42,121 nucleotides of DNA. Origin: an uncultured Methanosarcinales archaeon (GTDB lineage: Archaea; Nanobdellota; Nanobdellia; Woesearchaeales; CAZYIM01). Every line of letters starts with the position of its first letter. Position 1 is the stretch's first letter. The stretch covers positions 1 to 42,121 of the forward strand of contig CAZYIM010000024.1 in NCBI GenBank assembly GCA_964647565.1. The letters are read 5' to 3'. This document shows, one piece after another, positions 1 to 22,653 of this stretch. The translations under genes were made by a program, and so were the position numbers. The notes beneath the pieces were generated by a model that was given only the letters and a program-made list of their open reading frames with translations, made no database searches and had not been told where the DNA came from.

Positions 1-2121
1 AAAGAAGTTTCTCCATCAAAATTTCCAATGATTCAACCCTCAAATGTCGCAGACTACTTGACAAAAAAAAGTGTAATAGACTTGCCTGAGTGGTATTCTA
101 ACACCTTTATCCCCAAAATCTTGCCGGGCATAATTATACCTCAATCAGCAGCAAAGGACAATCCGGTCAAGCTCGATAAAATATCTCTTATCAATAAGAA
201 AACAAACACTGTGGAAAAAATAATCAAGTTTAACTCAGGCATCTCTTCTGATGAATCCTACAGCCTTATGCCTGACTCTCCTGGAAGCGAGAACAATCTT
301 TACAAGGGAAAATATACCTTGCGCCGTGTTGACAGTTGCGACAGTTCTGGGTCTGATTGTTACATGTTGGCGGATTTTTACTATGACGCAGAACATAAAG
401 GTGCATGTAGTGATCAACCAAGGAGCAAGGTTGTGATGAACAGGGTTGAACTACATATCACAGGGGAAGGGGAAAAAAGGCTTAAATCATATCCATTAAA
501 AGACTTGGGCTGGGATTGTGAGCATCCTGAATTAAAATTCAATCTACAAGCTGACTCTTCTGAAAGAGGCGGTTGGGATTTTGGTGTTTTTACGTGGATA
601 ACTATTACAGATCCTCAAGGAAATACCATTCATAAATCCGGCGCAAAGACCACATCTGGTAAGGGGAGACGTTCTTCTCTTGTTTCTTTTAAATTTAATC
701 CTGGCAAATATTCCTTAAGTGAACTTACCCTGAATGTTTATGGCTATAAGTGCGGCACAAGCAAAGATGTGGATCATCATTTCCGTACCTGTTGGGGCAA
801 AGCAAAAGCTTCAGACAATATAAGGCTTGAATACCTTGGTGTTGAGACAGTAAACTCTCTTGGATGGAGTAATCCTTCATATGATAAGGATCAGCATGAT
901 ACTTGGGGGTTGTTCTGGACGCAAGGGGGTCCTTTGGATCATAACGGACCTAATGCATTTGGATCGAAATTCTCTCCAGAAGGATTTGGCCTTGCAGATG
1001 CGTGGGTATTAAAGACTTTGCGCGTTGCAAGCGGCGCAAACATCAGTTGGGAATATGAGGTGGATGATTGGTTTACTTCAAGGGGTGATGTGTTTCAGCC
1101 TTTGTACGGAAAATATCTTAATTATTATGCCTACATGCGAAATAAGGCACAGCCAGATGATACTCTATGTCAAAATAACTATGGAGGTGGCTTGAAGGTT
1201 ACAAGTGAGACTAAGTGTGATGGTGTGTCTTCTTGTATAAAAACCAACTATGATTATTCAGTCTACGACCCGTCTTTGAAATGCTTCCGAAGTGCAGGTG
1301 CCATCGATACAGTCCCCTACGCACCTCCTAGTACATACAATGATTATGATATTCGTAGGCCAGGGCACATGGGCTCTGAATATGGGGTCGGGTCTGTGTT
1401 CTATAACCAGGTTAAGGTTATGCCTGATGACCAAGATACATATCAGGCGTTCAAGTATTTCACAGTTGATAGCACGCCAGAGAGTACTGATGGTGCGACT
1501 GATGTTAACATGATGGACGATTTTGGAGGCAACACACCTCATGACTTTGATGAATTGGGTAGTTCCGCCAATACTCCTCAGCCCTGGAAAAGAGGCCAGG
1601 AATATTGGATAGGTTACTATTCAACCAACCCTGCATTAGGCCGTAACGGACTTTTAAGGGAGGTTAAGCGATCTTTCACGTCACACGAGCACATAAAATA
1701 CTTTTTTCAGGATGTAAAACTTATTGCAGTACATCCTTTGAAGATAGTTCAGGAGGAAATAGACTTCCCTGATGCAGAATATGATGGGAAGAGATATGGA
1801 AAGTTCTATGGTGCAAGCTCCGGAACCATGAGAGTCTCAAATACATCTATGATCCTGTATGATCCTGGAGCTGGCGAGCAGTTCCAAATTGATAACTTTT
1901 TTGAGTATGATCCATATTCCGGACAGCCCAATAAGATAACCCTTGTTTCAGATGATATTACCAAAGTCATGACTATTAAATACGCTTTCGAGACAAACCC
2001 TATTTTGCTTGCCAGGCATATTTTGTCTCCTGTCTATGAAACAACATCTTATGAGGATGAAGAGGCTCCTGGTAATGCCCTAATATCAAAACAAATTATT
2101 TACAAGAATTTTGCTGATTAA
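1..2121 (+). CDS. 5'-truncated large protein, probable N-terminal/mid part of an RHS/YD-repeat shell
   Basis: Frame is open from base 1 (KEVSPSKFP before the ATG at 28). Motifs LKTLRVASGANISWEYE, GGGLKVTS..D..TNYDY, VFYNQVKV and FFEYDPYSGQP recall the beta-strand repeats of YD/RHS proteins. The stop is 2 nt before the next ATG. Confidence 0.55.
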   Translation, partial: KEVSPSKFPMIQPSNVADYLTKKSVIDLPEWYSNTFIPKILPGIIIPQSAAKDNPVKLDKISLINKKTNTVEKIIKFNSGISSDESYSLMPDSPGSENNLYKGKYTLRRVDSCDSSGSDCYMLADFYYDAEHKGACSDQPRSKVVMNRVELHITGEGEKRLKSYPLKDLGWDCEHPELKFNLQADSSERGGWDFGVFTWITITDPQGNTIHKSGAKTTSGKGRRSSLVSFKFNPGKYSLSELTLNVYGYKCGTSKDVDHHFRTCWGKAKASDNIRLEYLGVETVNSLGWSNPSYDKDQHDTWGLFWTQGGPLDHNGPNAFGSKFSPEGFGLADAWVLKTLRVASGANISWEYEVDDWFTSRGDVFQPLYGKYLNYYAYMRNKAQPDDTLCQNNYGGGLKVTSETKCDGVSSCIKTNYDYSVYDPSLKCFRSAGAIDTVPYAPPSTYNDYDIRRPGHMGSEYGVGSVFYNQVKVMPDDQDTYQAFKYFTVDSTPESTDGATDVNMMDDFGGNTPHDFDELGSSANTPQPWKRGQEYWIGYYSTNPALGRNGLLREVKRSFTSHEHIKYFFQDVKLIAVHPLKIVQEEIDFPDAEYDGKRYGKFYGASSGTMRVSNTSMILYDPGAGEQFQIDNFFEYDPYSGQPNKITLVSDDITKVMTIKYAFETNPILLARHILSPVYETTSYEDEEAPGNALISKQIIYKNFAD

Positions 2122-2123
2122 AA

Positions 2124-3437
2124 ATGGATAACAAGAAAACTTTGTGTTGGTCAGGATTGATTATTTTGATTTTAGTAGTCCTGATCTTGCATTTGGCTCT
2201 TGTTACCGCCGTTGATACAGGCAAAGACTGTATCTGTGTTGAGAAAGAGGAATATGAAGATGAAGATAGAGACTATTTTTGTGCAGCATCGTGTACGCCT
2301 CAAAACGGTAACCCCAGTAATTACAAAGTTACAGAAGATCGCTGCGAACTGGGAGAGTATGGTCAGGATAGATGTGAAGGATATTGCATCTGCGAGCGCA
2401 TACCAAATGTATGTGGTGATAGGATTTGCGATAACACTGAAACAAAGTTCTCATGCCCCACTGACTGCACTGTGGTTTGTGGAGACATGATTTGCTCACC
2501 AGGAGAATCAGGTTCTTGCAGAAAGGATTGTAGGGTTACTATTAATGAACAGTGGAGGATTTCTGAGGAGAGAACATGGCTTGATATCAATGAGGATGGT
2601 GTGATATCTAAGGATGCAGACGGTCATTATGCATATCCAGATGATTATACATCCACCAAGATTGCAGCGTATGACCCTTTTGGGAATGTGCTTGAAACTG
2701 TTGACGAACTGGGAACCAGTACCTATTTTATTTATGATAATCTCAACTGGAAAGCTGTCAAGGGTTACACAGAAGGTTTTGGATCCGCGCTCCAGCCCCG
2801 TTGGCAGAAGACCTACTATGATAACGGCTTGTTAAAGGATGTTATCAACGAGAATAATGAGATGACAACAAGATACTATGACCGCAAAGAATATCTTGAA
2901 CGCATAGTGACCAGCCCAGATGATAGTTATGATTTGCCTTCTAAGATATATGAAGTCAGTTTTAGTACGAAGCAGGGAGATTTGTCTTATGTAAAGACTC
3001 GTACTAAATTGGAGCCTGGAAAATATGCGATGACAGTTTCATATTCTGATGGGTTTGGACAGGTAATTCAGACCCAGAAACAGTTAGAAGGTGATAATTT
3101 CATAATACAAAATATAGATTATGACAGCTATGGAAATCAGAAGCATCTTTATTTTCCTTTTATTGAAAATACTGGTGGCGCATATACAACAACAAAGGGT
3201 GATATTAGGGAAAGCTATGGGTATTTTACTTTTGAGAAGAGTAGTGTTAAATCCTTTGAACGCAGAGATGGTTCAACTAAAAAGTATTATTATGGAGTCA
3301 CTTCCAATCAGCCATTTGTAATGTTTGAAGATGAGAACAAAAATACCTGGTTTTACAGGTTCGATCCTTTTGGTAATGTGTTGAGTGCTGAAGAAGGATT
3401 AAACCAGAATTTTGGTTTGGTGAGTGTTGAAGAATGA
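2124..3437 (+). CDS. Secreted Cys-rich protein with RHS/YD-repeat segment
   Basis: N-terminal hydrophobic signal (LIILILVVLILHLALVTA), CGDxIC...E...SCxxDC repeats, then YD-type repeats from about 2547: YDPFGNVLETVDELG, YSDGFGQVIQT, YDSYGNQ, FDPFGNVL. Confidence 0.75.
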   Translation: MDNKKTLCWSGLIILILVVLILHLALVTAVDTGKDCICVEKEEYEDEDRDYFCAASCTPQNGNPSNYKVTEDRCELGEYGQDRCEGYCICERIPNVCGDRICDNTETKFSCPTDCTVVCGDMICSPGESGSCRKDCRVTINEQWRISEERTWLDINEDGVISKDADGHYAYPDDYTSTKIAAYDPFGNVLETVDELGTSTYFIYDNLNWKAVKGYTEGFGSALQPRWQKTYYDNGLLKDVINENNEMTTRYYDRKEYLERIVTSPDDSYDLPSKIYEVSFSTKQGDLSYVKTRTKLEPGKYAMTVSYSDGFGQVIQTQKQLEGDNFIIQNIDYDSYGNQKHLYFPFIENTGGAYTTTKGDIRESYGYFTFEKSSVKSFERRDGSTKKYYYGVTSNQPFVMFEDENKNTWFYRFDPFGNVLSAEEGLNQNFGLVSVEE

Positions 3438-4579
3438 ACTTAAAACGTAAACTTGGTGTGCTGGTTTTGGTTTTGATACTGATAACTCTACTCCCCTTTT
3501 CAGCTGCATTGACAGAAAAAAACTGCGGAGATTTTGAACACAAGGGATTTTGGACAAAGTCTCTGCTTACTCATCTAGTAGATCCCCAGGGTAAGGATGT
3601 AGGTAGAGAGCAGGTTACATTTGACAATCATGACGGAAATTTTATGCCAGGATGGCTTCTTTCATTTGGTGGATATGGAACTGGTTGCTCTGATAATCAA
3701 ACAATAGTCTTTGAAATGCTTGACGATCTTGGTAAAATTTATACCAGGTACAAATGTCCTTGCTACAACTTAGATGGTATAGAGAGATACTGTTTGGGCA
3801 CTTTTAAAGCAGCTGATAAGGAACAGCTCGCGACCTTTACCAGATGTTACTCTCCTCATGAGCATCCTGCTGTTTGTAAAGCAGTAGGAGGATTCTGGTC
3901 AAATCAGGAGAACAATGCTTGTTGTGGAGATGAGTCAAATGAAAATTGGGATCCATATCTTAGAACCTGCTGCGCAGATTCAGTCTATAATAAGAACCCC
4001 AAAGACAGTTGTTGTGATCCTTCTGCTGTGTCAGGTCTGTTCCAATGTACAGATTCGTCTGTATGTGACAGCTGCAGCGAAAAAGGGCCTTGTTACTGTC
4101 CTTTTGGTTGTGAAAAAGAGGAAGGAGCCTTTGTTAGTGATGGTCAGAAATGCGGCAAACCCTCTGTTTGTGGTTCCTGCACTTCAAGTGACTCTGTGAA
4201 CTGCAGATGCCCAGATGATTGTTTAAGGCCAAAAAATGTAGTTGTCAGTCCTGCTACAACCTGTGGCGGCTCAGCATATACTATTAAATATACCTATGTC
4301 CGAGATATTCTAGGTAATATACTCTCAATAGTCACACCTCTCAATCTGGTCAAGGAATATGTTTATAACAACGTAGGGTGGATTAGGAGAGTTGTCGATC
4401 CAAATCTTGGCATAACCTCTTTTTCAAGGAATAAAGCTGGCTTAGTTGCTAATTATACGTCGCCATCCGGAGTCATGTGGAATATTACGCTTGATGCGCT
4501 TGGAAGGTCTGTCCTTACTTGGACAGGAGGAGGACCTCCTGAGAGTGAAACCAAAGGCTCTGTGGCAGAGAAAAAATGA
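3434..4579 (+). CDS. Secreted Cys-rich protein with short C-terminal RHS/YD-repeat segment
   Basis: ATGA overlap with the upstream gene, signal peptide, Cys-rich middle (CCGDE, CxCPxxC). C-terminus from about 4277 reads YTIKYTYVRDILGNILSI..YNNVGWIRRVVDPNLG..LDALGR. Confidence 0.72.
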   Translation: MNLKRKLGVLVLVLILITLLPFSAALTEKNCGDFEHKGFWTKSLLTHLVDPQGKDVGREQVTFDNHDGNFMPGWLLSFGGYGTGCSDNQTIVFEMLDDLGKIYTRYKCPCYNLDGIERYCLGTFKAADKEQLATFTRCYSPHEHPAVCKAVGGFWSNQENNACCGDESNENWDPYLRTCCADSVYNKNPKDSCCDPSAVSGLFQCTDSSVCDSCSEKGPCYCPFGCEKEEGAFVSDGQKCGKPSVCGSCTSSDSVNCRCPDDCLRPKNVVVSPATTCGGSAYTIKYTYVRDILGNILSIVTPLNLVKEYVYNNVGWIRRVVDPNLGITSFSRNKAGLVANYTSPSGVMWNITLDALGRSVLTWTGGGPPESETKGSVAEKK

Positions 4580-7500
4580 AAATAAAGAATAAAAATACTT
4601 GTTTAAGATTGCAGCTGTTTATACTAGTGTTCTTATTAGTCCTATTAGCTCTTTCTTCCGCACAAGTCCAGGTTCCAGAAATTGCGGCAGCCTATAAAGT
4701 CTCTTACTTTGATGCAGATCCAAAATGCCTTTTCACATATCATTCCATTGGTCGGGTTTGTATGGCTGAGAATGAGCAGTCTATCTATATGCCTGTTTAT
4801 GATTCTTCTGGAAGAGTCAATTCAGAGATACATGTTTACAAGAACAACAATCTGCTGATCGATGGAGGCTTTGATTCTAATATAACAGAACTTCTCTATA
4901 TGAAAGATGATTGGGTGTCTCTTGTCAAGGATGGCTGTTACGAGGGCTTCTGCGCAAAACTGCATGTCCCTAATATGAAATCAGGAAATATGCCTGATTA
5001 TGCTGATGTTGCTTTCCTTCCCGTTGTTTATAATGAAGTTGGGGCGCATACAGTCTCTTTTTATGCCAAAGAGAATGAGTTAAACACACCGGTTTCCTTG
5101 AAAATTAACTATTATGAAGGCCCTTATACTCCTTCAAATCGACGTATGGAACAAAGAATCGGAGCAGACACTTATTATTTCAAGCCAACAGATGAATGGA
5201 AGCGTTATTATGTTGAGTTGGATACCATACCTGTCAACACAAAGTATATTGTTGTTCAGCTGTTCTTAAGTTCAAATGATTATCCTCGGTCAGGAGCTGT
5301 CAGGCGATACTGCTTGATAGATAATGTACAATATGAGATTCAAAAACCAACAGGAGAACTCATGCCCACTCCGTTTGAGCGGTCAACATATGTAGTTGAG
5401 TATAAGTACTATAGTGATGGCAGGGTCGCTCAACTCATAGATCCCGGCAATGTCCGTAGGATTTTTATCCACGATCTTCTTGGCAGAGTCACGCAAATAG
5501 ATGCAGATATTGATAATGATGGTGTTGTTGACCAGACAATTGCGAACTATAAATATGATGTGCAGTCATTGTTGACTGAAAAATCTCTTGCAGATATAGC
5601 AACAGTTGAATATAAATATAATCCAAGGGGATTGCTTGATTATTATTCTGCGTATTGGAAAGGCATGACCTTGATTGAAGAAAACTTATCATATGATCCC
5701 TCAGGTAATCTGAGAAACATTGAGTCTCAAGGAGGGTTTGGAGCATCTCTTTTCTATGATGCGCTTCACAGGTTGGTGTCTGTTCAGGATACGGGTTATT
5801 ATATCAACTCAATCGATTTTGATTATTCTGACGAAGGTGATCGTTTGAAGAAAAATTCTCAGCAATACATTTACTATCCTGGGAGCAATAAGCTTAAGAC
5901 AGACGGCCTTTGTGACTATACGTATGATGTGTCAGGAAGAGTCAGTTCGGTTGTCTGTGATGATGGATATGCTCTGTACAGCTACACGCTTGAGGGTGAT
6001 ATTGCTGGCGTGTCTTACTTTGACAACCAGGACATCTTGAAGTATAGGACGGAATATAAATATAATGTTGATGATGATCTGGTAATCAAGTCTGCATTTA
6101 CAGATAGGTATTACTATGAAAACAGCTATCTGGTCAGGGATTCTTCAGATGAAATAATATATCAAGAGCATTATAAATACTGCAGTGCAGATGATTATCT
6201 GAACAATTCATATATCAAATCCCCTGACTGTTGCATGGACAATCTTTCGGCAACATTCTTTGATGGATCGAGTGCGTTAGCAGGATCATTTGATTGGCTT
6301 GTATGGGGTGAACAATTTGCAGGTGTTGATTATGAAATTGGAGAGACTGAATGCTGTGGTGATGATCTAAATGAGAGTGCTTCAGCCTACAGGGATTGGG
6401 ATCCAACTGTTGGCTTTTGTTATGCGCCAGATAATGGCTGTGATGGTACTACTAGAACCAATTTGGATGATGCCGCCTGCTGCGCTTCGCCATCTGTGAA
6501 TCCTGATTGTGTATTCAATGGAACCTGTTATGCAATATCAGAATTCGCTGACATAAAGGATGCCTTAGATGATGATCCTGATTCGAGTTCTGATAAAGAA
6601 TTGTGTGTAGGATTTGGCAATGTCTCTGTTTGGCAGGACGCAGATATAGGTGACAGCAACAGGCAAGGTCAAACTTATTGTGAACTTTTCTGGAATCAGA
6701 CATGGGTTTCTGAGAATGTTCCTTGTGAACCTGCCGATAGATGGGGATCTAAAGAGGATGATTATTGTGATGATACACTTGCAGGATTAGATCCTCAAAC
6801 ACAGGAAGGTGTTTCTGAGAACTATTGCTGTGGAGATGATAGGCTTGAATTCTACAAGTGTAATCCTGAGGATGAGACTGACTGTGCTTGCTGTGATTCA
6901 GACCAGGATGTTGTTTTTGAAAGTGTTTGTTATAACAGAGGTCTATGGGATGCATCTATGGATGCTGCTCAATCAGGACCTCCCTTTGAGTGGGAGCATG
7001 ACGGAATATTATTTGGCCCTGAGCGTACTGAAGACTGGGCAGAAGAAGTCAATGCGTATCTTGAGAAATGTTACCTAAACGAGATCAATTGCACTTGCTT
7101 TGCAGATCAGATCTGTCTTGTTCCAATCAACTTTACTGCAAAATATGGTGACTTGATGGCAAGTGAACTGAAAGTTGCTTACACTCTAGATGAGGCGCCT
7201 AGTTGTGGAGTTCCTGATTTTTATTTTCAAGAAGGGGATACTATTGATATTAATACAGCAGATTATATTAGTTCAGCTGATCATGATCCACTAAAAATTA
7301 CGCTGTCTCCTTCGCACGTATTTACGAACACAGGTGGGAATGTAGTAGCAAAAAGTTTGAACATGAGACCTGCTAAATATGGCATTTACAAGTTCCATGT
7401 TGTTGCTGCTGAAGAAACACGTTATTCTTTGAGTTGCGAACAGGATTTCTATGTGTATGTTCAATTCCTGAATAATCGTCCGTGGATAAGAGCTCCTGTT

Positions 7501-9777
7501 GAGATCAATGTCACAGAGACTGAAACAGTGGCCTTTACAGTTGAAGCAGGTGATATTGATGGTGATCCTGTTTTGGTTCTTGAGAACTTTTCTAATGTTC
7601 AACCAGGATATAGGCAACTGCCTCTTGATGCAACTTTCGATAGGACTTCTTGGCAATTTTCCTGGACAACTGATTATAATAGTTCAGGCCCTTCACATGA
7701 TTATGCATACATGTTATATTTCAAATCTGTGGAAAATGTCCCGAATAGGGAACCTGTGTCAAGCCAAGACGTATTCACAATCATTCGGGTTTTGAACAAA
7801 AACAGACCTCCTGTTCTTGAGGTTCCTGATATGCGTGTTCAAGAGGGTGATACCTTGAGTTTCAACCTTTCAGCAATGGTTAATGATCCTGACACAGAAG
7901 ATGATTTGATATTCCTTACAAATGCAGTTAGTGTGATACAGATTAATGAGGACGGTGATCCAGGGACTGGTGTTTTGTCGTTTGATAATGCTGAAGGTTT
8001 TTTTAGTTTTACGCCTGATTATGGACAGGCAAATAACATTCATTCAGAGAGGGTTTATGAAGTCAATTTCGTTGTTATTGATTCTGAGGGTGGCTTTGAT
8101 AATAAGACTGTAGATATTGTTGTTGAGAATAACAATAGAAAACCAAATATCACACAGCCTATTGAGAATACTTTTGCTGTTGCAGAAGGAGCATCATTGA
8201 CATTTCTAATTACTGGTACTGATAGGGATGTGCTTGTTGACGGTGATTTTATAAATCTTACCGCTTCAGGGACAGTACCGGATCTTCAAAGTAAGATACT
8301 CTTTGAGAGCGAAAAAGGTCTAACCCTTTTAGATTACAGTAAGAGTTGGAGTTTTACGTGGAATCTGGGATTTGAGGATAGTGGAACATACTTCCTTGAT
8401 CTCTTGCTCTATGATCGTGGGATTGCATATGACACTAAGAATATAACTATCGAAGTTGTAGATACTAACAGAGCTCCTTGGATAGATATTCCAGATCAGG
8501 TTATGTTTATGGGCGAAACTTTGTTATTGGACCTGGATAATCATTCCTATGATCCTGATGACGATGCACTAAGCTATGTTTTGATAGATGCTGCTCCTGG
8601 AAAGATTGGTTGTGTTGTCAAAGACAATGAACTGACTATTCAACCAAGTTCTGATTATTTTAATCAGCCATTTAATCCTGAGTCTCCGATACCTGCAACA
8701 TGTAGTGTTGGTGTGAATGATGGAAAAGGAGGTGAAGACACATCAACTTTCAATATAACTGTTATCCGTGTCAATAAGTTGCCTGCTGTGGATCTGGTTT
8801 CAGATGTTTACACAGGTATTGCACCTCTTACTATTAGGTTTCGTTGTAGTGCCGAATCAGGTGATGAACCATACAACTTTAGCTGGGATTTTGGTGACTC
8901 AAGTTCTAATTTAGGTATAACAAATCCTTCCATAAAAGAGCATACATTTACTAACGTGGGAAACTACACTGTACGGTGTACAGCAACAGACAGTTGGACT
9001 AATATTTCTGGGTTGAGAGGTGATTCTGCAGTTGATTCTGTGAATATTACAGTCAAAAAGAGGGAAACTTTAAGATATACATTGCGAATACCTATTGGTA
9101 CTTATGTGAGGTGTGATAGAGAGCCAAGGACAAGTTCTGCTGTGATCGATTCACTTGATTGCTCTGGCAACTATACATTCCGTATAGAGATTGAGAGAGG
9201 GCACTGTAGGCACTGGCTGACCAAGGATGGCTACAGAGGTGTTGAGGGTAGCATCATAGCTTGGACTGGTGACGTCTATACACCCTCTCAAGCCAGACAA
9301 TACCAGAGAGATTGCTACTACAATTTAGAAGGTGGGGGAGATCCGAGAGATGGTGACCAGTGCCATGTGGCCTACAATCTGACCAGTGGGACTGCGATCT
9401 GGAGAAATGGGGAATATGGTAAGCCCGCTTACTATTATGTTGATCCTGTAACTGGCAAGGAGATTTGGGATGCTTCCTGGTTAAGGTTCTGTCAGCTCCA
9501 GAATAACGAAGAGGTTCAGATTAAAATGTCCTATGCAAGCCACAACCAATTTATTTGGGAGGGATACTCTGAGGATGATGATGCAGCTTGGGTCGAAGCA
9601 ACACACTATTTCGGTAATATCGCGCCAGTCTACATTGAAAGAAATAAACCCCTTAAACTGGATTTCACTCATGGATATGTAATTGATAAGACTCATTGTA
9701 CTAGATCTGCGGGCAGTATAGGCTTTCAGGTCATATATTTTGAGTCAGATGATTATGATATTTCTTGCAATCCCTAG
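4576..9777 (+). CDS. Large secreted protein: RHS/YD repeats with a CBM-like insert, CCGDD Cys-rich region, Ig/cadherin-like repeats, PKD domain
   Basis: Signal peptide. YD repeats at about 4690-6175 (YDSSGRV, HDLLGRV, YNPRGLL, YDPSGNL, YDALHRL, YDVSGRV). Insert NLLIDGGFD..VSFYAK..WKRY..IDNVQ. Repeats begin NRPW/NRPP/NRKP/NRAP/NKLP. PKD motif SWDFGD at about 8881. Confidence 0.78.
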   Translation: MKIKNKNTCLRLQLFILVFLLVLLALSSAQVQVPEIAAAYKVSYFDADPKCLFTYHSIGRVCMAENEQSIYMPVYDSSGRVNSEIHVYKNNNLLIDGGFDSNITELLYMKDDWVSLVKDGCYEGFCAKLHVPNMKSGNMPDYADVAFLPVVYNEVGAHTVSFYAKENELNTPVSLKINYYEGPYTPSNRRMEQRIGADTYYFKPTDEWKRYYVELDTIPVNTKYIVVQLFLSSNDYPRSGAVRRYCLIDNVQYEIQKPTGELMPTPFERSTYVVEYKYYSDGRVAQLIDPGNVRRIFIHDLLGRVTQIDADIDNDGVVDQTIANYKYDVQSLLTEKSLADIATVEYKYNPRGLLDYYSAYWKGMTLIEENLSYDPSGNLRNIESQGGFGASLFYDALHRLVSVQDTGYYINSIDFDYSDEGDRLKKNSQQYIYYPGSNKLKTDGLCDYTYDVSGRVSSVVCDDGYALYSYTLEGDIAGVSYFDNQDILKYRTEYKYNVDDDLVIKSAFTDRYYYENSYLVRDSSDEIIYQEHYKYCSADDYLNNSYIKSPDCCMDNLSATFFDGSSALAGSFDWLVWGEQFAGVDYEIGETECCGDDLNESASAYRDWDPTVGFCYAPDNGCDGTTRTNLDDAACCASPSVNPDCVFNGTCYAISEFADIKDALDDDPDSSSDKELCVGFGNVSVWQDADIGDSNRQGQTYCELFWNQTWVSENVPCEPADRWGSKEDDYCDDTLAGLDPQTQEGVSENYCCGDDRLEFYKCNPEDETDCACCDSDQDVVFESVCYNRGLWDASMDAAQSGPPFEWEHDGILFGPERTEDWAEEVNAYLEKCYLNEINCTCFADQICLVPINFTAKYGDLMASELKVAYTLDEAPSCGVPDFYFQEGDTIDINTADYISSADHDPLKITLSPSHVFTNTGGNVVAKSLNMRPAKYGIYKFHVVAAEETRYSLSCEQDFYVYVQFLNNRPWIRAPVEINVTETETVAFTVEAGDIDGDPVLVLENFSNVQPGYRQLPLDATFDRTSWQFSWTTDYNSSGPSHDYAYMLYFKSVENVPNREPVSSQDVFTIIRVLNKNRPPVLEVPDMRVQEGDTLSFNLSAMVNDPDTEDDLIFLTNAVSVIQINEDGDPGTGVLSFDNAEGFFSFTPDYGQANNIHSERVYEVNFVVIDSEGGFDNKTVDIVVENNNRKPNITQPIENTFAVAEGASLTFLITGTDRDVLVDGDFINLTASGTVPDLQSKILFESEKGLTLLDYSKSWSFTWNLGFEDSGTYFLDLLLYDRGIAYDTKNITIEVVDTNRAPWIDIPDQVMFMGETLLLDLDNHSYDPDDDALSYVLIDAAPGKIGCVVKDNELTIQPSSDYFNQPFNPESPIPATCSVGVNDGKGGEDTSTFNITVIRVNKLPAVDLVSDVYTGIAPLTIRFRCSAESGDEPYNFSWDFGDSSSNLGITNPSIKEHTFTNVGNYTVRCTATDSWTNISGLRGDSAVDSVNITVKKRETLRYTLRIPIGTYVRCDREPRTSSAVIDSLDCSGNYTFRIEIERGHCRHWLTKDGYRGVEGSIIAWTGDVYTPSQARQYQRDCYYNLEGGGDPRDGDQCHVAYNLTSGTAIWRNGEYGKPAYYYVDPVTGKEIWDASWLRFCQLQNNEEVQIKMSYASHNQFIWEGYSEDDDAAWVEATHYFGNIAPVYIERNKPLKLDFTHGYVIDKTHCTRSAGSIGFQVIYFESDDYDISCNP

Positions 9778-9849: not shown

Positions 9850-12800
9850 GTGAGGAGGAAGCAATTTTTAATAGTGTTATTAGTAGTTCTTACGTTATTT
9901 ACTAGTGTTTGGAGTGTTTCTGCTCTTGTCTGTTGTTGCATATTGGATGCTAATAATGAGCTGACTCATCCCTTTGCATCCCATGTTATTGATGATAACT
10001 GTATTGCGCCAAGTGTTCCCTACATCTACAATACAACTTTCATGAATGACGCGTGCACTCAAAGCTTTTGTGAAGGCAAACACGGTTCTAGCGGCAATCC
10101 TACTTGTACTTCTGTACAGTGTGAAAGTGATAATCTTGTTGAATGTTTATGTGGAGGACAGACGGCTTCTGCAGGTAAATTTTGTTGTTCGGGTAATCCT
10201 TCAATCAAGATTTTTGATACTCAAGCAGATTGTCATACTCAAAGTTCAGTATGTAAAGGCACATCTTCTGACTGCCCTTTACATACTGTGAAAGGAACTG
10301 TTTTTGACCAGAACTCTGCGACCAAGTTTGCTAATGTAGAAGTAAGACTGGGCTCTTACACAACCACAACCAATTCTAGTGGGCAATACAAGTTCGAGAA
10401 TTTGGTTGGGTTTACGACCGTGGGCACAGTTGTTGCATCACATACCGGATATACTGATAAGAGTGTCACACTGAATTTCCAAAGTGCAGTGGCGTGTGAA
10501 ATCAATGTGGATAATATTGTTATGCAGCCAATAGCAGGTCCAGAGGCCTGTGCGGGTATTGGCAACTGCTGCCTTGCAGGATACGTTTGCCCTGATAACT
10601 TGGTTTTTACAGGGCTGTTCTCTGATTGTGATACTGCTTGCTGTCACAATCCCTGTATTGCAGTGGAGGATTACTGTTCGCCTGGCCTATGTGACCTCGG
10701 CGGCAACAGGTGGTGCAATTCATCTCACGAATGGATGAGTTTTGATATTAATGATAATACTGAAAAGGGTATTTATTGTAGTGCAGGTAAATGCCTGAAT
10801 GCAGATCCAGACTGTATAGCAGGCGCTTGCCAGGATGATGGAAAACCCAAGTCTTGCCCTGCTCATTGTGAACATACGACTTATGATCCTAACTGTGTCT
10901 GCGATAGTACCAACGATGATGGTTACTGTCCTCCTTGGTGTAATGGCATTTCAGGTTCAACTTTCTATGACTTGAATTGTTCGACAATTGAAGACAAGTG
11001 TGGTGACGGAACATATAATGCTGCAGATAATGAGGACTGCGATGGAGCTGACTTGGGTATCTGTGACATAAATGATGATGTTTGCATTAACTGTCATTGT
11101 GTTGTAAAAGGAAGTTGTGGGAATGGCATTACAGAGATATTGAATGGTGAGCAATGTGACGACAATAACAATATTAACACTGATGCTTGCAACAATAGTT
11201 GTGAGCTAACAGCAGATCCATGTACACCTCAGCTTACATTGGGTGTAAGCCCTGCATCTGCAACTTCTATGGCCTTGAGCTGGACAATTCCCCCTGATTG
11301 TGCGGTTGATAATTACAAGATTTACAGCTGCAAACAATATGTACATCTTGGAGAAACACCTGCCACAGAATGCGATCCAAGAATACAACACTCTCCTAAT
11401 CCAGCATCCTCTGCTACTTCACTCACGTTTCCCACTGATAAGGATCATCGCTACTGTTTCAGATTGGTCGCACAATTTGATCCATCAGGAATAGTCGAAG
11501 AAAAGGTTGTTTGCGATAATACGCCTAGTGCGAGCTGTGATAGTGAACCTCCAAATTCAAATTTTTGCATCAACAACCAAGTATTTCGCTGTGATTCCGA
11601 TGGCGTTTTAAAACCAGGAGATTCTTGTGACGTGTGTTGGCTGGGTGTTTGTTTGGAAAAAGGAGATTGTGATGCAGAATGTAACGGCGCATTTAATTTA
11701 TTTTCAATCGAGAACCCTAAAATACCTGTTGCGTATCAAGGCGAGGGTGTATTCACTACAGTAGACTGTTCTGAATCCCCCAGATCAACTTGTTATCTTG
11801 ATTATACTAATAATATTGTTGATAAATATTATTCCTGTGCAAAAGTTGATAGTTGCTATAGGTATCGCTCAAATTATACTTGTGTTAATGATCCTTGTGC
11901 AGCTAATCTTAACTGTCAATGGAACTCCTATAACAATGATCTGGGTATGGGCGTGTGTGCGCCTAAAAACAAGAAAGACCAGCACTGTGAGTATGCAGAG
12001 CAAACATCCCGTACTGCTGCAACTCCTGACGATATTTATAACAGAATATCTCCTGAAGTGACAAAAGAAATATGCCTTCTTTTTGGTGATTGTTATTTCA
12101 ATGATGTATCTAACCTTTTCAATAATCCTGCCCCCCCTGCGGGATGTATTAATGTTGAAACTGTCGCATGTAAAAACTATAATAATGAAGCTGATTGCGG
12201 TAGTGAATTCTCTGTGGTAGTAAATTACCCTCCCGTTGGAACTTCACAACTCACTACAGGAAGTAATATTAAAAATGATAGTAAAGATAAATTAGAGTTA
12301 GGTAATTGTAAGTGGAACTCTTCTGAGAACTTCTGCTATACAGATTCCAATGACAATGGCTTTTTTGATAGCGCAGAAACAAATTTTGGGCGTGGTCATA
12401 CACCTCAACCCTTTATCTCAGGTCCAAGTAAAAATGGATGTGCTGTTTCAGGTCAAGAATGTTTGACAGATACAGACTATCCTATCACGACCTTGATTAA
12501 TCCCCCTCTAGCAACAGGTAAAGATGTTGAATTTGAGTTTTCAATCGTGGATGATAATGTTGATCATCTTCATTCTACTTACTATAGGATCAGGAAAAAG
12601 AGTGAAAGCTATACCTATCCCAACACACCAATGTTCAAAACAGAATATACTATTTCTTCTGAAGGAACCAATTTAGGTAAGATTACTTCAGAAGACTTGA
12701 CAGAAGATTTGACAACTGACACCTATATACTTGATATTTTCTCAATGGATATGGCATGGAACCTTGAGCCTGTCCAACACCATGAGTTTGATGTGGACGC

Positions 12801-15800
12801 GGACATCGGTGTCAATGTCAGCTGGGAATACAGCTCTTATCTTGAGAATGATATTTACAAGATTAAGATGAATATCACGCTTGAATCTGATGAGAATATT
12901 ACATGTAATCCAGGCACTCAACTTACGTTTATGGGACGTGCAGCATCATCTGACTTGGCGGGGTTAAGAGGGTCTAAATTTTTAGTCAAGGTTCCTGATT
13001 TAACAAATATTGTACTTTCAAGTGGCATTTACAATTTTCATGTAGACTGCACAGATGAGTATGGTAATAATAATATCAGTGATGTTGAAATCAAGATAGA
13101 AGCTGACAAAAGCATCTATGATATAACTCCTGAAACAGAGACCTTCAACACTAAAGATGTTGAGATAAAATTCAAGACCAATTCATCTGCAGAGTGCAGA
13201 TACAGCACAAAAATAACTGATGGTTATAAAGATATGTCTGCGGCTACTAATAAGTTTACAGCATCTGCAGATGGCAAATCCCATTCAAAAACAGTGACTG
13301 TAGCAGGACAAAAAGTAAACAAAGCCTTTGCATACTTCATTGCGTGTAATATGACTGTGACGGATCCTGTCAGCGGCACCCGGCATGAGATAGTCGAAAA
13401 GCTGTTGGAGGATGTAGCGATCTTTGCAGTAGATACGACACCACCCATGACCATTGTCAGCGATGCAACTAAAAGCCCTGAAACTTTCTGGGATCCTGGA
13501 AGATGGTATATTGAACGCTTGAAATTAAAATTCGAGTGCTTTGATCCTCCTATTAATAATCTTATGCCTGGTATGGAATTCGGATGCAAGGAGATGTATT
13601 TTGATAATACAACTGTCTGCAAACCAAAAGATAATCCGGTCGGGACCAAGACTCATTTTACTCATGAGTTCACAACACCAGGGCGCAATAAGATATGCTA
13701 TTACTCTATGGATAACGGAAGCAATAAAGAGACTCTTCATCTGAACTATACCTTAATTGATAGTGATTCAGTTGGTTTGGAAATCAATTTTACAAGAGTA
13801 GATACTGGCCAGCAGGTTGCCATCCTTGACACTGGAAACTTTAAGGCAATTTACACATTTGATATTCCCATAACTGATGTTTTTAGAGCATATTATACTA
13901 TTCAACATGCAGGAGTTGTTATTACTACAGACATCCCGGATATAACTTTGATATCTGATGCTGATAAGACGAAATATCACTCCTTAGTATATTTCTCAAA
14001 TGTATTGGCCGCTAAAGTAGATGCTCCAGTAGAATTCACTATCCAAGGCTTTAATGAGCATGGCACTCTGGTCACAGCTAAAAAGACAATCACTTTTAAT
14101 TCTATGCCTCCTGCAAAACCCACGCTTGAACCATTTCCTTTAACAGGACCAGGGACAGGATCTTCAAGAACCAACTGTCCTTCAGGAAGAATAAGCTATC
14201 CTGCCAATGGTAATGTGGCCGATTATCCTATATATTGCCATGCCATGGCTAATTATGCAGCAGGCAAAAACAGAATGAACACTTATTATTTCAATACACC
14301 TCAATTCTTTATTTCTGGTAACTCTACGAATGTTCGTCAAGCGTATATAACTTTCCATCTTGTGCAATCAACATCTGATCAACTCAAGGTTGCAGCTGAA
14401 TATAACCAGACTTTTGTCGAACCAACCCCTATTGATACTGCTGCAATATCAGGAACATATTCAAAAGGAGCTAGCAAAGTCAACGCAGTACAAACTCTAG
14501 TTACTAACAAATGGACTGCCAATAAATATTTACTGTTACCCCATATAAGAAAAGAGTATAAACACTTTAAGGAATACTATAGGATAAATGATGTTACAGG
14601 AAAAGAAGTCACCATTGATCCGGTTTTGGAAGAGCCTGGCGATGCAGGCATAATGAAGTTATATGGTAAGAGCCATCCTGATAGTTGGTTTGGAGCAACA
14701 GTAACCCAAGATTACAATCTTTTAGGTAACAACGCCTATAAATTCTATGTCAAGTCAGATGTTGGCAAGACAAGAAAGAGTGAATATGATGAATTCAGTT
14801 TTTTCATTGACCCTATCAAGCCTCAAATCTATGAGCAGCCTAATATTATAGACGGAGAAACAATTACAGAACCAGGCACCAATTTCCACATGTATACAGT
14901 TGAGGATATTAGCGGCTCTGGTGTCAATTCAGGATCTGTTAGCTGTAAGCTGAATAGTGCCCAAGGAGCTAGCGCAGATTCCAACATCTTTGTCAGAGAA
15001 GACGGTTCATTCTATCTTTACAAGGTGAAATGCAATCTTAATCTGATTGAAGATGGTGATTATCGACTTATTGTAGACGCAAGGGACTATGCCAATAATC
15101 CTATTGTTGCCAACGGTTTCTTCCCGACTGCAAGTTCGCCATTTACCATCAACTTCGGACTCTACAGGCATGCACCTGCTAAGCCTGTCTTTGCATTATT
15201 AGATGCAACGTCATATAATCCTTCTCCAAAGGGTTGGGTGATCAATAAGACACCTAGTTTTACCCTTGATTACACCAAGAAGGATAATGGAGCGCCAGAA
15301 GCACTTGTGGTTAATACGCCGACTGTTCAACTGCTAGGAGCCACCAATACTGTTAGTTGTTCAAAATCAGCTTTCAATATTTATACTTGCTCAGTTTCAG
15401 GTAATCTGCCAGAAGGAGATTATAGATTGAAAGTAACTGCTAAAAAAACAATGCCCTCAGGCAATCTAGGTCCTGAAGGCAAGCACTTTTTTTATTTCAC
15501 AGTTGATAAAACAGCACCAACGTTCAATCTGCAAGTGCCTAATCCTTGGTATGCAACAGGTACTGTGGACCTTCCTGTTCTTGTAAAACTGACCAGCACA
15601 GAAAGTGACCTGATTACAGAAGTGAGGTTAAACAGCGAATCTATATCTATTACAAATGGATTTACTATAAACAACGATGAATATGCATTTTTCATACCAT
15701 CAAGTTTCTACTGGGGTGGAGATGGCAGGAAAACTCTGCAAATAACTATAATGGATTATGCAGGCAATGCCAATACAAAGAATGTCGAGATAATGATAGA

Positions 15801-16179
15801 CACTACACCACCTGGAATCACCATCACCAATATTAGTGCTAATCCAGGTTTCATGACTGATACAAGGAACGCAACAGTAGGAACATTCTTTGTCAATGTA
15901 ACAGGTAATGTCTCTAATGATGCAAAGGAATTATGCTATTTTGAGAAGGATGTGATTAAACACTGCATCCAACGTACTGACATCTACTATGGCATACATT
16001 CTGATAATACATTTAATATTAATCTGACCATAAGCGGAGCATCACCTGGCGAGACCCCTATAGATATTGAGTTAAATGTGACTGATTATTCGACACCTCA
16101 TCTATCATATGAGGAATCATTGTTTATCCTATTGGATCTGCTGCCTCCAGACGAGCCAACTAAAAACATTACTGAATAA
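9850..16179 (+). CDS. Giant secreted Cys-rich/Ig-like surface protein (2109 aa)
   Basis: GTG start with RBS and a signal peptide. Carboxypeptidase-regulatory-like segment (VKGTVFD..TTTNSSGQYKF..ASHTGY), myxobacterial-type Cys repeat (CGNG..EQCDDNN..DACNNSC), FN3-like segment, many Ig-like DTTPP/DKTAP boundaries and many N-x-S/T sequons. Confidence 0.8.
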   Translation: MRRKQFLIVLLVVLTLFTSVWSVSALVCCCILDANNELTHPFASHVIDDNCIAPSVPYIYNTTFMNDACTQSFCEGKHGSSGNPTCTSVQCESDNLVECLCGGQTASAGKFCCSGNPSIKIFDTQADCHTQSSVCKGTSSDCPLHTVKGTVFDQNSATKFANVEVRLGSYTTTTNSSGQYKFENLVGFTTVGTVVASHTGYTDKSVTLNFQSAVACEINVDNIVMQPIAGPEACAGIGNCCLAGYVCPDNLVFTGLFSDCDTACCHNPCIAVEDYCSPGLCDLGGNRWCNSSHEWMSFDINDNTEKGIYCSAGKCLNADPDCIAGACQDDGKPKSCPAHCEHTTYDPNCVCDSTNDDGYCPPWCNGISGSTFYDLNCSTIEDKCGDGTYNAADNEDCDGADLGICDINDDVCINCHCVVKGSCGNGITEILNGEQCDDNNNINTDACNNSCELTADPCTPQLTLGVSPASATSMALSWTIPPDCAVDNYKIYSCKQYVHLGETPATECDPRIQHSPNPASSATSLTFPTDKDHRYCFRLVAQFDPSGIVEEKVVCDNTPSASCDSEPPNSNFCINNQVFRCDSDGVLKPGDSCDVCWLGVCLEKGDCDAECNGAFNLFSIENPKIPVAYQGEGVFTTVDCSESPRSTCYLDYTNNIVDKYYSCAKVDSCYRYRSNYTCVNDPCAANLNCQWNSYNNDLGMGVCAPKNKKDQHCEYAEQTSRTAATPDDIYNRISPEVTKEICLLFGDCYFNDVSNLFNNPAPPAGCINVETVACKNYNNEADCGSEFSVVVNYPPVGTSQLTTGSNIKNDSKDKLELGNCKWNSSENFCYTDSNDNGFFDSAETNFGRGHTPQPFISGPSKNGCAVSGQECLTDTDYPITTLINPPLATGKDVEFEFSIVDDNVDHLHSTYYRIRKKSESYTYPNTPMFKTEYTISSEGTNLGKITSEDLTEDLTTDTYILDIFSMDMAWNLEPVQHHEFDVDADIGVNVSWEYSSYLENDIYKIKMNITLESDENITCNPGTQLTFMGRAASSDLAGLRGSKFLVKVPDLTNIVLSSGIYNFHVDCTDEYGNNNISDVEIKIEADKSIYDITPETETFNTKDVEIKFKTNSSAECRYSTKITDGYKDMSAATNKFTASADGKSHSKTVTVAGQKVNKAFAYFIACNMTVTDPVSGTRHEIVEKLLEDVAIFAVDTTPPMTIVSDATKSPETFWDPGRWYIERLKLKFECFDPPINNLMPGMEFGCKEMYFDNTTVCKPKDNPVGTKTHFTHEFTTPGRNKICYYSMDNGSNKETLHLNYTLIDSDSVGLEINFTRVDTGQQVAILDTGNFKAIYTFDIPITDVFRAYYTIQHAGVVITTDIPDITLISDADKTKYHSLVYFSNVLAAKVDAPVEFTIQGFNEHGTLVTAKKTITFNSMPPAKPTLEPFPLTGPGTGSSRTNCPSGRISYPANGNVADYPIYCHAMANYAAGKNRMNTYYFNTPQFFISGNSTNVRQAYITFHLVQSTSDQLKVAAEYNQTFVEPTPIDTAAISGTYSKGASKVNAVQTLVTNKWTANKYLLLPHIRKEYKHFKEYYRINDVTGKEVTIDPVLEEPGDAGIMKLYGKSHPDSWFGATVTQDYNLLGNNAYKFYVKSDVGKTRKSEYDEFSFFIDPIKPQIYEQPNIIDGETITEPGTNFHMYTVEDISGSGVNSGSVSCKLNSAQGASADSNIFVREDGSFYLYKVKCNLNLIEDGDYRLIVDARDYANNPIVANGFFPTASSPFTINFGLYRHAPAKPVFALLDATSYNPSPKGWVINKTPSFTLDYTKKDNGAPEALVVNTPTVQLLGATNTVSCSKSAFNIYTCSVSGNLPEGDYRLKVTAKKTMPSGNLGPEGKHFFYFTVDKTAPTFNLQVPNPWYATGTVDLPVLVKLTSTESDLITEVRLNSESISITNGFTINNDEYAFFIPSSFYWGGDGRKTLQITIMDYAGNANTKNVEIMIDTTPPGITITNISANPGFMTDTRNATVGTFFVNVTGNVSNDAKELCYFEKDVIKHCIQRTDIYYGIHSDNTFNINLTISGASPGETPIDIELNVTDYSTPHLSYEESLFILLDLLPPDEPTKNITE

Positions 16180-16180
16180 T

Positions 16181-19100
16181 ATGAAACAAACAAGCCTGAT
16201 AATCTTAACGTTGATATGCTTAGCTATGATTTTCCAGGCGACAGCCCTTAATCAGGTCAATTCTAGCACACCTTCAATCAAGTTAGCATACAATGAAACT
16301 GTTAAAATCACCAACATGAGCCTTGTGGACAAGGATCGAGTCATAGAATATGATCTCCAGAAATTACCTATGGCTGATTTTGAGAAAAACTACACCTTCA
16401 AACCTATTCTTCCGTTAAGAAGAGGTAACTACCTGTTTGCTGTGAATGCAGAAGATAGATTGACCAACTCGCGATCGACGATATATGAATTTGAAGTGTT
16501 GCTGGCACTGCTTAACATAACTTTGGTTAATCCTTCTTTTGGTGTTTCAGCTGTTCCTGTATTCGACCTGATAATAAGAACAACTGAACTTGTACAAGGC
16601 TGTAGATATGCAACAGTCAATATACCCTATGACAATATCCCGACTCAGTCAAACCATTTCACAAGCGTGGATGGACTGGTCCATGTAATCAGGGATTTCC
16701 AGGATCTGGCTGATAAGCAGGATATGTTTGCGTATGAGATCTTTATCAAGTGCAAGGATTCATATGGTGATACCAACGACCAAACTCCTGCTGTCTACAC
16801 TTTGATGTTAGATAGAACGCCGCCCGTAGTTACTGTCCAAGCAGAGCCTCCTTTTGTGGCCGAGACCCTTTATGTGCTGATCATCGCAACTGCTGAAGAA
16901 GACGACGTACGATGCAAATACGATGAACAATATGATAACTTCACACTGATGAGACACAAGTTCCCTGGATTCGATGAAGCAAATTTCACTAATCCTGTTG
17001 TATACAACAAGACTGACATCCAAGATAAAACGAACTATAGTTATTTCATTGCATGTGAAAGCAAAGCAGGAAAGATATCTGAAACAAAAACTGTGAGCTT
17101 TAGAGTGGACCTAAGTGCGCCTTCTATGATTGTGGATTGGTGGCCAAAACAATATGCCAACTCAACCAGTCCTAAACTGAAAGTACTCACCAACAGAAAA
17201 GCCATATGCAGTTACACCCTAAATAATCAATCAACAGACTTTACTCAGACTTTCACAAGGACTCATGAAACTGTTCTCTCTGGATTGACGTCCAATCGCG
17301 AATACAGGATACCAATAAAATGCAGGTTCCAGATTGGAGGTAGGGATGATGCTATAAACATGACCTTTATGTTGGATGGTACGCCGCCAACAAAACCAAC
17401 CATCTTGTCAGGAAATAACTCGTGTTCATTGACTTCCTTGAATTTGGTGTTTGGGTCTGATGATCAGGGTGGTGCGGGTATTAAAGGGTATACATATTCA
17501 ATCTATAGGAATAAAACGCCTCTGTTTTACAAGATGTTTACTGATATATCTAATGTAAAGCACTATCTTGAGATGGATCCTGATGAGAAGTTAGAGATTC
17601 ATGTTATTGCATATGACATTGCTAATAATCCAAGTGAAGAGCTAGTACAAAATATAACTGTAACAGCACCTGATTCTGCTGGCTGCGATAGGGTACCTCC
17701 TGCTACAGGAGTTCTACGTGTGGATTACTCCCTGAGAACTGAGCTGTTTGTTTGGTGTCAAGATGGACAATCAGGTTGTGTTGAGGAATTCAAATATGGC
17801 TTTTCAGATGTTAATGGTGTCTGTACATTAGACAATACTTCTTATCTCGCAAACCAACCTCTTATTGTTAGACAGAATACAACGTTCTGCTGGGAAGTGT
17901 ATGACTGGATGTATAATAATGCTTCAGGAGAGATGGATATCATGTTTGGAGCAGATCTAGATGGGGATGGAGTTACAAGATCCACAGACTGTAATGATCA
18001 GAATGCATCAATCTATCCCGGAGCAGCAGATCCTTGCGGGGATCATATAGACTCTAACTGTGATGGTCAAAACGACTCGTGCAGAGGATGCTACAATACA
18101 CAAGATGATTGTTGTGGAGGAGATTTTGATAATGTCTGTGATCCTGATTGTACTGAGCACACAGACCGGGACTGTAGGGAGTGTACTCCTTATGACGGTG
18201 ACTGTTGCCAAGCACTTATTGATTCAATATGTGATCTTGACTGCCTTACTGGTCAAGATCCTGACTGTAATATATTTGGTGGGAAATGTACTCCTGGCAC
18301 TTGTGATGTTGGAGGTAATAAGGTATGTAATGCTGAAGGTACTTGGACTACTCATAATTATACTATGATTTGTGGGCATATTGACAGCGATGCAATTGGT
18401 ATTGATTGTCAGGAAGGTGCCTGTGATATTTATACTAACAAGGTATGTCGGAATAATTATTGGACTGTTCGCAACTACTGTGATAATTGTTCTGGTGTTG
18501 ATAGTGATTGCAGTGGTGCATGCACAGATGGAGAATGTGATTTTAGCTCTAAAAAATATTGTGCGGGCTCATCCTGGTATGGTGGTGATGAAGCTTATTG
18601 CAATAAGTGTGGTGCTATGGATGAGTTCTGTGATGTTCCTTGTATTGATGGCGTATGCAATACCAAGACCAACAAGGTTTGTTCAAACGGACAATGGATA
18701 GACAATCAATACTGTTCACTTGATGTTTGTGGCATGACTGATTCTGATTGTGGCACTCCCGAATGTCAGGAAGAGACTTGTGATATCTTTGAAAATAAAT
18801 ATTGTGCTGAGCAGGTCTGGATTGAAGACGGCTATTGTGATGTTTTGAATTGTGGCAACACTGACATTGACTGCATGGGTGTTGGATGCTCTAACGGCGC
18901 TTGTGAGAATGATGCTAATATGTATTGCCAACTAGGAAGCTGGATTGCAGGACCTTTCTGTGATAATTGTGAAGATCCTGACTGTGATTCTGTCGGAGAT
19001 AAATGTACTCCTGGCACTTGTGATATTGGGGGTAATAAGATTTGCAATGCGAATGGTGCCTGGACTACTCATAATTATACTATAATTTGTGGTCATCTTG

Positions 19101-20587: not shown

Positions 20588-20591
20588 TAAA

Positions 20592-21080
20592 ATGCTTAAG
20601 CAATCACAAATAAAGCAGGTTTTTATCTATATTTTTTTAATGCTTATTGTAGGCGCACTCTTTCTGGTGGGATATAAAGCATTTGATTCCTTAATGCAGA
20701 AGAATTGTGAAGCTGAGAAGATAAGTTTTCAGAAAACTTTTTTTGGTCTGGTCAACAGGTTCAGCCTTTATGGTGCGTTAAATAGAGAATCCTTACATCT
20801 TCCATGTGATTTCTATATGCTTTGCTTGGCTGACGCCTCTAAATTAGGAAATACAGCCTATGATGGCGGTAATAAGTATATCGATGATGCTGTTCAATCC
20901 GGCTCTGCAAACATTTTTCTATTAACATTTGAAAATAAGACCATTGATGCAGTGGGAACCTCTAGGAAGATCCAAATTTATAATCCTGAAAAAACACTTT
21001 GCATTAAAAAGTTGTCTGGTGTTGTCAAAATAGAATTTGCAGGTCGTTCTAACACCACAAGGATTAGGCCTTTCTCATAA
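20592..21080 (+). CDS. Pilin-like protein (class III signal peptide)
   Basis: MLKQSQ followed by the hydrophobic stretch VFIYIFLMLIVGALFLVG; alternative start at 20577. Confidence 0.65.
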   Translation: MLKQSQIKQVFIYIFLMLIVGALFLVGYKAFDSLMQKNCEAEKISFQKTFFGLVNRFSLYGALNRESLHLPCDFYMLCLADASKLGNTAYDGGNKYIDDAVQSGSANIFLLTFENKTIDAVGTSRKIQIYNPEKTLCIKKLSGVVKIEFAGRSNTTRIRPFS

Positions 21081-21081
21081 A

Positions 21082-22143: not shown

Positions 22144-22144
22144 G

Positions 22145-22648
22145 ATGAAAAAGAAATCGCAAATAAGGATGGGAGAATCTGTTGCAGTCATTATCATAGT
22201 GACTATTCTGATTGTGGTGGGTATTGCCATATTTTCTCAAATGGAAAAGCGAAGAATGGAAGGCAAAGAGTTGGAATTCGAGGAATATGATGTGATTGCT
22301 GTTTCACAAAGAGTTTCTGCCCTTCCTGAACTTCAGAAGTCAGACCAGGGCATATCCAAGATGGTGACCTTTGATATCCAACGCATACATGCCCTTACAG
22401 GACTAATTAACTCATCAAAGCCAGGTTCGAGAACGCGAACCTACTATAATACTATATTTGGCACATCTAATATCTATGTGCAAGAGATATACAATGGAGG
22501 CGCATCAAATAAGCTTTATTCAATCTATAATAACACACCTGTAAACTTTACACGTATGACTCCATCGAGGATTTATGTCAGCCTCTATGATCCTCTAAAA
22601 AATAGCTATGCATTAGGCGTATTAACAGTTGAACAATACAATTCGTGA
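22145..22648 (+). CDS. Pilin-like protein (class III signal peptide)
   Basis: MKKKSQIRMGESVAVIIIVTILIVVGIAIF; TAAGATG coupling. Confidence 0.8.
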   Translation: MKKKSQIRMGESVAVIIIVTILIVVGIAIFSQMEKRRMEGKELEFEEYDVIAVSQRVSALPELQKSDQGISKMVTFDIQRIHALTGLINSSKPGSRTRTYYNTIFGTSNIYVQEIYNGGASNKLYSIYNNTPVNFTRMTPSRIYVSLYDPLKNSYALGVLTVEQYNS

Positions 22649-22653
22649 TATTC

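Follow-up and report, generated by a model that had tools for sequence, protein, structure and literature searches.

An RHS-type shell divided over five secreted genes in a DPANN archaeon and its probable assembly outside the cell

Bacteria make RHS toxin-containers as one or two chains, and in the current view the shells of these containers fold as a single unbroken spiral that encloses a payload made last, in the same chain. Can such a shell also be put together from several proteins that leave the cell separately? In the present work, we examine this question for an archaeal locus in the window, by which we mean the whole 42,121-nt contig C24 of genome G000. We will argue that five genes very probably encode a single TcB/TcC-like RHS shell that assembles outside the cell, a reading based on sequence comparisons and a structure model. 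The assembly of G000 comprises 2.68 Mb, is 87% complete and was obtained from a low-depth metagenome bin. The window encodes an archaeal RadA, its sequence is present in marine metagenome runs, and related protein clusters carry the source labels Nanoarchaeota or Aenigmarchaeota, which suggests a DPANN archaeon, probably of the Woesearchaeales; none of the listed public runs containing the window is an RNA run.

The features discussed below are collected in Table 1. A first, sequence-only reading had proposed that YD repeats run through four genes in the order of one RHS protein, and Pfam (RHS_repeat and DUF6443) indeed places the YD segments where it had seen them. It had also noted fresh signal peptides at the start of genes 2–4 and a Cys-rich module ahead of the repeats in genes 2 and 3, and both observations hold: leaders were called by hydropathy only, with no predictor, and on this measure ORF2, ORF3 and ORF4 have a single hydrophobic stretch each, at the N-terminus. 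The Cys-rich module of ORF2 is of a repeat type that is frequent in many other proteins, and that of ORF3 is 31% identical to its counterpart in G231, a genome of another family.

Table 1. Features of the locus and its surroundings (window coordinates unless a position on contig C10 is given).
Feature	Position	Strand	Remarks
ORF1	1-2121	+	open at contig start; window cut inside gene 1
C-terminal half of shell gene 1 (TcB-like half), ORF1	1..2121	+	by homology and structure model
Jelly-roll CBM-like domain inserted in ORF1 shell wall	403..861	+	model residues 88-240
ORF2	2124-3437	+	ATGA overlap with ORF3 start
ORF2 hydrophobic leader, signal-peptide-like	2124..2210	+	hydropathy
ORF2 Cys-rich module	2229..2531	+	16 Cys, residues 36-136
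ORF2 YD shell segment, includes DUF6443	2541..3419	+	Pfam and profiles
ORF3	3434-4579	+	ATGA overlap with ORF2 end
ORF3 hydrophobic leader	3434..3508	+	hydropathy
ORF3 Cys-rich module	3686..4264	+	25 Cys, residues 85-277
ORF3 YD shell segment	4286..4507	+	about 80 residues; profiles
ORF4	4576-9777	+	1733 aa; ATGA overlap with ORF3 end
ORF4 hydrophobic leader	4576..4662	+	hydropathy
ORF4 YD shell segment	4705..6165	+	with inserted CBM-like domain (about residues 90-255)
ORF4 appendage	6181..9777	+	Cys-rich region, cadherin/Ig-like (Big_9, Cadherin_4) and PKD domains
Two giant Cys-rich Ig/fn3 surface proteins	9850-20587		
NlpC/P60-like protein	28982-29974		Pfam E 1.7e-5
SLT transglycosylase	35679-38150		Pfam E 1.6e-11
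20-nt overlap with C10	window 1..20 = C10:70112-70131	+	in frame
RHS-core (plug) gene	C10:67195-68460		own leader; 422 codons; outside window

Are the four segments consecutive parts of one shell? Profiles of the pieces were placed on two single-chain proteins outside the profile-building set. On P0015 they fall at residues 414-979, 978-1255, 1256-1342 and 1350-1828, and on the 2408-residue archaeal chain of G502 at 558-1087, 1090-1382, 1393-1469 and 1480-1820, after which this chain runs into an intact core at 2012-2139. The top match of each profile is clearly ahead of its next best. Since the pieces map onto the full-length chains in order and without overlap, redundancy of the segments can be ruled out. 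Read against the single-chain relatives, the cuts are placed at turns between strands, and no strand is missing or doubled at any of them. As for the cause of the division, an export size limit was considered and rejected, as ORF4 has 1733 residues, ORF5 has 2109, and single-chain shells exceed 2000.

The same cuts recur in relatives. The five-gene locus of G231 is divided at the same points as ours at 27-36% identity, the conservation of split points that the earlier reading had suggested looking for. The ORF1/2 cut is in addition present in a paralogous locus on contig C2 of G000, in P0018 and in P0002, a 437-residue orthologue of ORF2 that is 36% identical and has both ends the same. The ORF2/3 cut is shared with G231, G389 (whose protein is P0005) and G157, and with ten proteins (P0002, P0006, P0007, P0009, P0010, P0013, P0017, P0018, P0019 and P0094), while the ORF3/4 cut is found in G231, G389, G157, G217, G034, G256 and G294. 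In the C2 locus, ORF2, ORF3 and ORF4 are fused into one 837-residue gene, and other loci have additional cuts inside gene 1. Every 5′-complete piece listed from these loci bears a hydrophobic leader. With cuts at such varied sites, the shell therefore appears to tolerate division at several turns. Longer chains in which the ORF2 segment is fused were absent from the results of a first, weak search of the 5.8-billion set and turned up in a later one; a scan of metagenome contigs with ORF2 returned no relatives.

We also note that, across genomes, in-frame insertions of CBM-like domains occur at several distinct loops of the shell (loci L093, L058, L057 and L089). A third shell of G000 (C62:2652-8651, 2000 residues) begins with a multi-pass membrane part and ends in Ig-like repeats; its matching C-terminal part is a separate gene in G025.

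The assignment of ORF1 as a shell piece rests on homology and on a structure model. ORF1 has no Pfam or NCBIfam match, and its profile reaches at best E 0.66 (to YenB) among solved structures; likewise, ORF2 alone finds no match there. The ORF1 model (pLDDT 62) matches TcdB2/YenB (Foldseek E 2.4e-8; VIA Z 9.8 over 323 residues, rmsd 6.0), and in the structure search it is closer to TcB than to teneurin. The domain predicted within its wall resembles CBM22 (Z 9.0-9.1, rmsd 3.1-3.6), a likeness of fold only. In sequence, ORF1 is 36% identical to residues 615-1263 of a 1272-residue gene of G231, and shell gene 1 has a full length of about 1270-1290 residues.

The missing part of gene 1 can be located on contig C10. 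The 20-mer of the overlap (Table 1) occurs at just two sites in G000 and joins ORF1 to an open frame of 585 codons with a hydrophobic leader, whose N-terminus has a weak SpvB match (E 1e-3, under the cut-off); an FG-GAP Pfam match, as for the integrin-like β-propeller that follows SpvB in the TcdB/TcaC class, is absent from this half of the gene. The last 33 bases of the contig (C10:70132-70164) differ from the start of the window and are absent elsewhere in the assembly, which could be a contig-end artefact or a variant. Directly upstream of gene 1, and overlapping with it, lies a gene for an RHS core, called the plug here. It matches TIGR03696 with 27 bits, which is under the cut-off, and a local profile with E 4e-35, has a tail of about 250 residues, and gives a pLDDT of 56 when folded alone. 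In G231 the five genes stand in the same order on one contig, and the two loci have three upstream neighbours in common. On this sequence evidence, gene 1 consists of the C10 part and ORF1, and the plug gene is the fifth piece.

From the overlap and the gene order in G231 it follows that the locus has a core gene, which lay beyond the window available to the sequence-only reading. The four-gene system without a toxin tip described there has thus to be replaced by five genes, with a core and its tail in the upstream one. Both the PxxxxDPxG motif and a core-profile match are absent from ORF1–4, as that reading had stated, and the upstream core is also without the motif. The Cys-rich, Ig-like and PKD domains do not take the place of the core, as had been thought; they form an appendage after the last shell strand, which is also present in G231, and the core is encoded apart from it, as a secreted protein of its own. 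The YD segment of ORF4 ends at the point where the first strands of the core protein begin. Similarly, on the bacterial teneurin-like structures 9IFO/9PT5 the ORF4 profile extends to 2008, and the core profile follows from 2016. Among solved structures, the archaeal core profile (alignment A4) finds its top matches in two mosquito salivary proteins, SGS4 and SGS1.

The neighbourhood upstream of the core varies. In G389, G157, G217 and G034 (L083, L084, L085 and L087), the genes immediately before the motif-less core encode an ABC-type ATPase–permease pair, which is absent from this position in G000 and G231, and a small upstream membrane protein is common to G000, G231 and G217. A paralogue of the first of the two giant surface proteins in the window, 30% identical to it, is encoded upstream of the locus, at C10:64600-66681.

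We consider next the plug itself. It lacks the autoproteolysis motif and the other conserved catalytic positions, and both are missing as well in six orthologues (G231, G389, G157, G217, G034 and G294). All seven motif-less cores lie directly upstream of shell gene 1 of multiply split shells. In a quick tree of 73 cores, which included the trait-carrying columns and has long end branches, they form one side of a branch with an SH-aLRT of 99. Lacking the catalytic motif, the plug would therefore not cut off its own tail. The tails of the orthologues diverge in the alignment after about 20 residues. None of the six motif-less tails scanned has a Pfam toxin domain, but this says little, because most tips of intact cores are likewise without any Pfam match (55 of the 63 tips scanned). 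An Atlas search with the C10 tail gave matches scoring 0.77, which is the chance level. No immunity gene follows the core directly, the next gene being shell gene 1.

To what extent do the pieces fit together? A model of four chains, i.e. the ORF2, ORF3 and ORF4 segments with the core as partner, places the plug in the barrel with a score of 0.89, compared to 0.00 for the best of three controls. At least 94% of the contacts are common to the runs, and the pLDDT of the partner is 81 or higher. In the model, the plug contacts all three pieces, its first residues lying against the last residues of ORF4. Of 157 solved complexes, 116 reach the score mark, as do 2 of 215 mismatched pairs, counts that are only roughly valid here. 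It is important to bear in mind that only the plug was scored and that the job comprised ORF2–4 and the core, without gene 1, so that the multimer prediction proposed in the earlier reading is answered in part. Because the chains come from a split gene whose relatives have solved structures, the pass may reflect their likeness to solved RHS shells. Together with the tiling and the cuts in G231, the model nevertheless supports the proposal that the pieces are joined by strand complementation.

On the basis of known RHS structures (PMC8636562; bioRxiv 2024.02.26.582050), we suggest that each chain would be exported unfolded by Sec, after which the leader is removed. Outside the cell, the chains would then fold and become linked through their edge β-strands, which pair with one another, the plug would close the end of the barrel, and the Cys-rich caps, the CBM-like inserts and the Ig/PKD appendage would face outward. 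Such a particle would serve at a host-contact surface, and its genes would share an operon with those for surface and pilin-like proteins.

If the shell does assemble, a stable particle that binds a host or a surface, in a teneurin-like manner, is its reasonably likely use. We rank this use first since the plug is incapable of self-cleavage and CBM-like, Ig and PKD domains lie on the exterior; the adhesion domains of ORF4, the neighbouring giant surface proteins and pilin-like genes, the blank Pfam toxin scan of the motif-less tails and the shell gene in place of an immunity gene after the core also speak for it. On the other hand, the tails diverge between orthologues as toxin tips do, and hydropathy finds no membrane anchor in ORF1–4 that would explain retention at the surface. 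Taken as a whole, a five-chain extracellular shell with a non-cleaving plug and a surface-binding use is the best explanation, although we would place it only slightly above an even chance. Of the two forms given in the sequence-only reading, an adhesin or a container for a cargo encoded elsewhere, the second finds support, in that the plug and tail are encoded in another gene.

A toxin carrier is the second-ranked reading of the assembled shell, possible but with clearly less in its favour. The plug's own variable tail could be kept in the shell until a protease other than the plug, or the target itself, sets it free, or the shell could take up one of four intact core-plus-tip proteins encoded elsewhere in the genome, a combinatorial loading in trans. 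G000 does have four further stand-alone cores with an intact motif and unrelated tips; two of these are not paired with a shell and are 86% identical over the first 231 residues. As regards the wider pattern, in the order the TIGR03696 core is found in 58 of 301 genomes, a tally that takes in two unpublished genomes (G290 and G170, on which nothing else here depends), and among 150 listed matches five are in frames of at least 1000 residues. The fetched loci, which are best matches and not a random draw, contain 63 distinct cores, and a hydrophobic leader is present in 54 of the 56 that are 5′-complete, compared to 264 of 1111 control frames. Their 63 tips form 49 clusters, and eight have any Pfam match; the toxin families above the cut-off are Ntox47 and Colicin_D (one tip each), with weaker matches to Colicin_D and Ntox24 in two more. 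In G157, six cores stand in tandem after one two-gene shell. Finally, among 301 genomes of the phylum, all 40 with a shell have a core, and 40 of the 47 with a core have a shell, counts that include kin and are not independent.

Against the carrier, every toxin match lies in an intact core of another locus, and the motif-less cores adjoin this shell type in seven of seven cases. Moreover, core-plus-tip proteins may not need a shell at all, as G132, G403, G493 and the single-contig genome G472 have cores and, with two further profiles, no shell match. Secreted cores number 11-13 in each of G132, G403 and G493. Shell-less genomes as a group carry 1-13 secreted core-plus-tip genes (e.g. L062 and L063 of G132), and shell-free use, diverged shells or assembly gaps may account for them. 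TcA (PF18276) was not found in the 87% complete G000, and the control genomes gave no match either.

Both uses presuppose that the pieces do assemble. That they no longer do so, and are now independent surface proteins with a YD remnant, is improbable. Large parts of ORF3 and ORF4 are indeed Cys-rich or Ig-like modules that occur also in unrelated surface proteins, but strands are neither lost nor doubled at the cuts, the order is kept, the segment of about 80 residues in ORF3 is retained in a gene of its own in four genomes, and the model docks the pieces. Pseudogene decay or an assembly error, conceivable in a low-depth metagenome bin with a contig that ends inside gene 1, has next to nothing left to recommend it: the collinear tiling and the identical cuts, in G231 and also in P0002, exclude it, each cut comes with a new leader and Cys module, stop and start overlap at junctions 2/3 and 3/4, and contigs from public runs span all three junctions with no differing letter and no indel (of these runs, X1 and X2 may derive from the source sample; X3, among 32 of 89 pieces listed, spans junction 3/4 only).

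We now compare the five-chain shell with known systems. The B–C component of Tc/ABC toxins (TcdB2–TccC3, YenB–YenC2) is similar in the TcB match, the weak SpvB match and the multi-chain shell; a TcB-like half is present here by the fold match and by SpvB below the cut-off. The archaeal locus differs in having five chains with their own leaders, a core cut from the shell, no autoproteolysis motif, and adhesion domains inserted and appended. PMC3482391 describes a TcdB/TcaC class with signal peptide, SpvB and RHS repeats, listed in Euryarchaeota. Its members are one polypeptide, while the pieces here are separate; P0093, a single chain of this class with a Tox-REase-7 tip, aligns with the pieces. 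Stand-alone cassettes are treated in the same paper as recombination donors, whereas the cores here carry a leader of their own. By analogy, the archaeal shell would work like that of Tc B–C or of the TcdB/TcaC class.

In the T6SS Rhs effectors (Rhs1), according to PMC8636562 and bioRxiv 2024.02.26.582050, the barrel is closed by a C-terminal aspartyl-protease plug and the fragments stay together after cleavage. These fragments arise by self-cleavage of the product of a single gene, and here they would be the products of separate genes. The co-translational encapsulation proposed in the latter source cannot hold for our locus, since plug and tail would leave the cell as a chain of their own. 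An FN-plug and an NHL propeller ahead of the YD shell mark the teneurins and the teneurin-like proteins of bacteria. Their shell is part of a single chain, with an adhesive use in animals; the bacterial ones self-cleave and have immunity genes, and the main text does not contain the word "archaea" (PMC13018210). On 9IFO/9PT5, as described above, the ORF4 and core profiles tile consecutively. With respect to the RHS/YD polymorphic toxin class, the locus has, from its sequence, the YD shell and a variable tail with no Pfam match, but departs from the class in core position, motif and immunity gene. Our literature search returned nothing on a split secreted RHS shell or on RHS in DPANN, although a 2019 mBio survey of archaeal polymorphic toxins and its supplements may list such loci, and the portions seen of PMC13018210 and bioRxiv 2026.07.27.741052 describe no split secreted shell.

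If the five-chain shell is real, encapsulation would be possible after export and in trans, with plug and payload supplied separately, and the locus would offer a direct way to probe how RHS containers load and open. The hosts and weapons of DPANN archaea are mostly unknown, and the presence of a core in 58 of 301 genomes of the order suggests a widespread system of host interaction or conflict that has so far gone undescribed. More tentatively, and with the balance leaning somewhat against it, one may imagine that RHS toxins in this DPANN class form a modular extracellular kit, with shells of one to four chains and a trans-loaded library of up to 13 plug-plus-payload proteins per genome that requires no recombination. 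The present locus would then be its most divided form, with a non-cleaving plug.

Two observations concern the rest of the window. The second giant surface protein has a C-terminal hydrophobic segment that could be an anchor. Further on, 20577-38150 contains genes with pilin-like N-termini, which we take to be class III from the motif, and this run includes the NlpC/P60-like protein and the SLT transglycosylase, possible parts of a cell-wall-attacking pilus in an archaeon.
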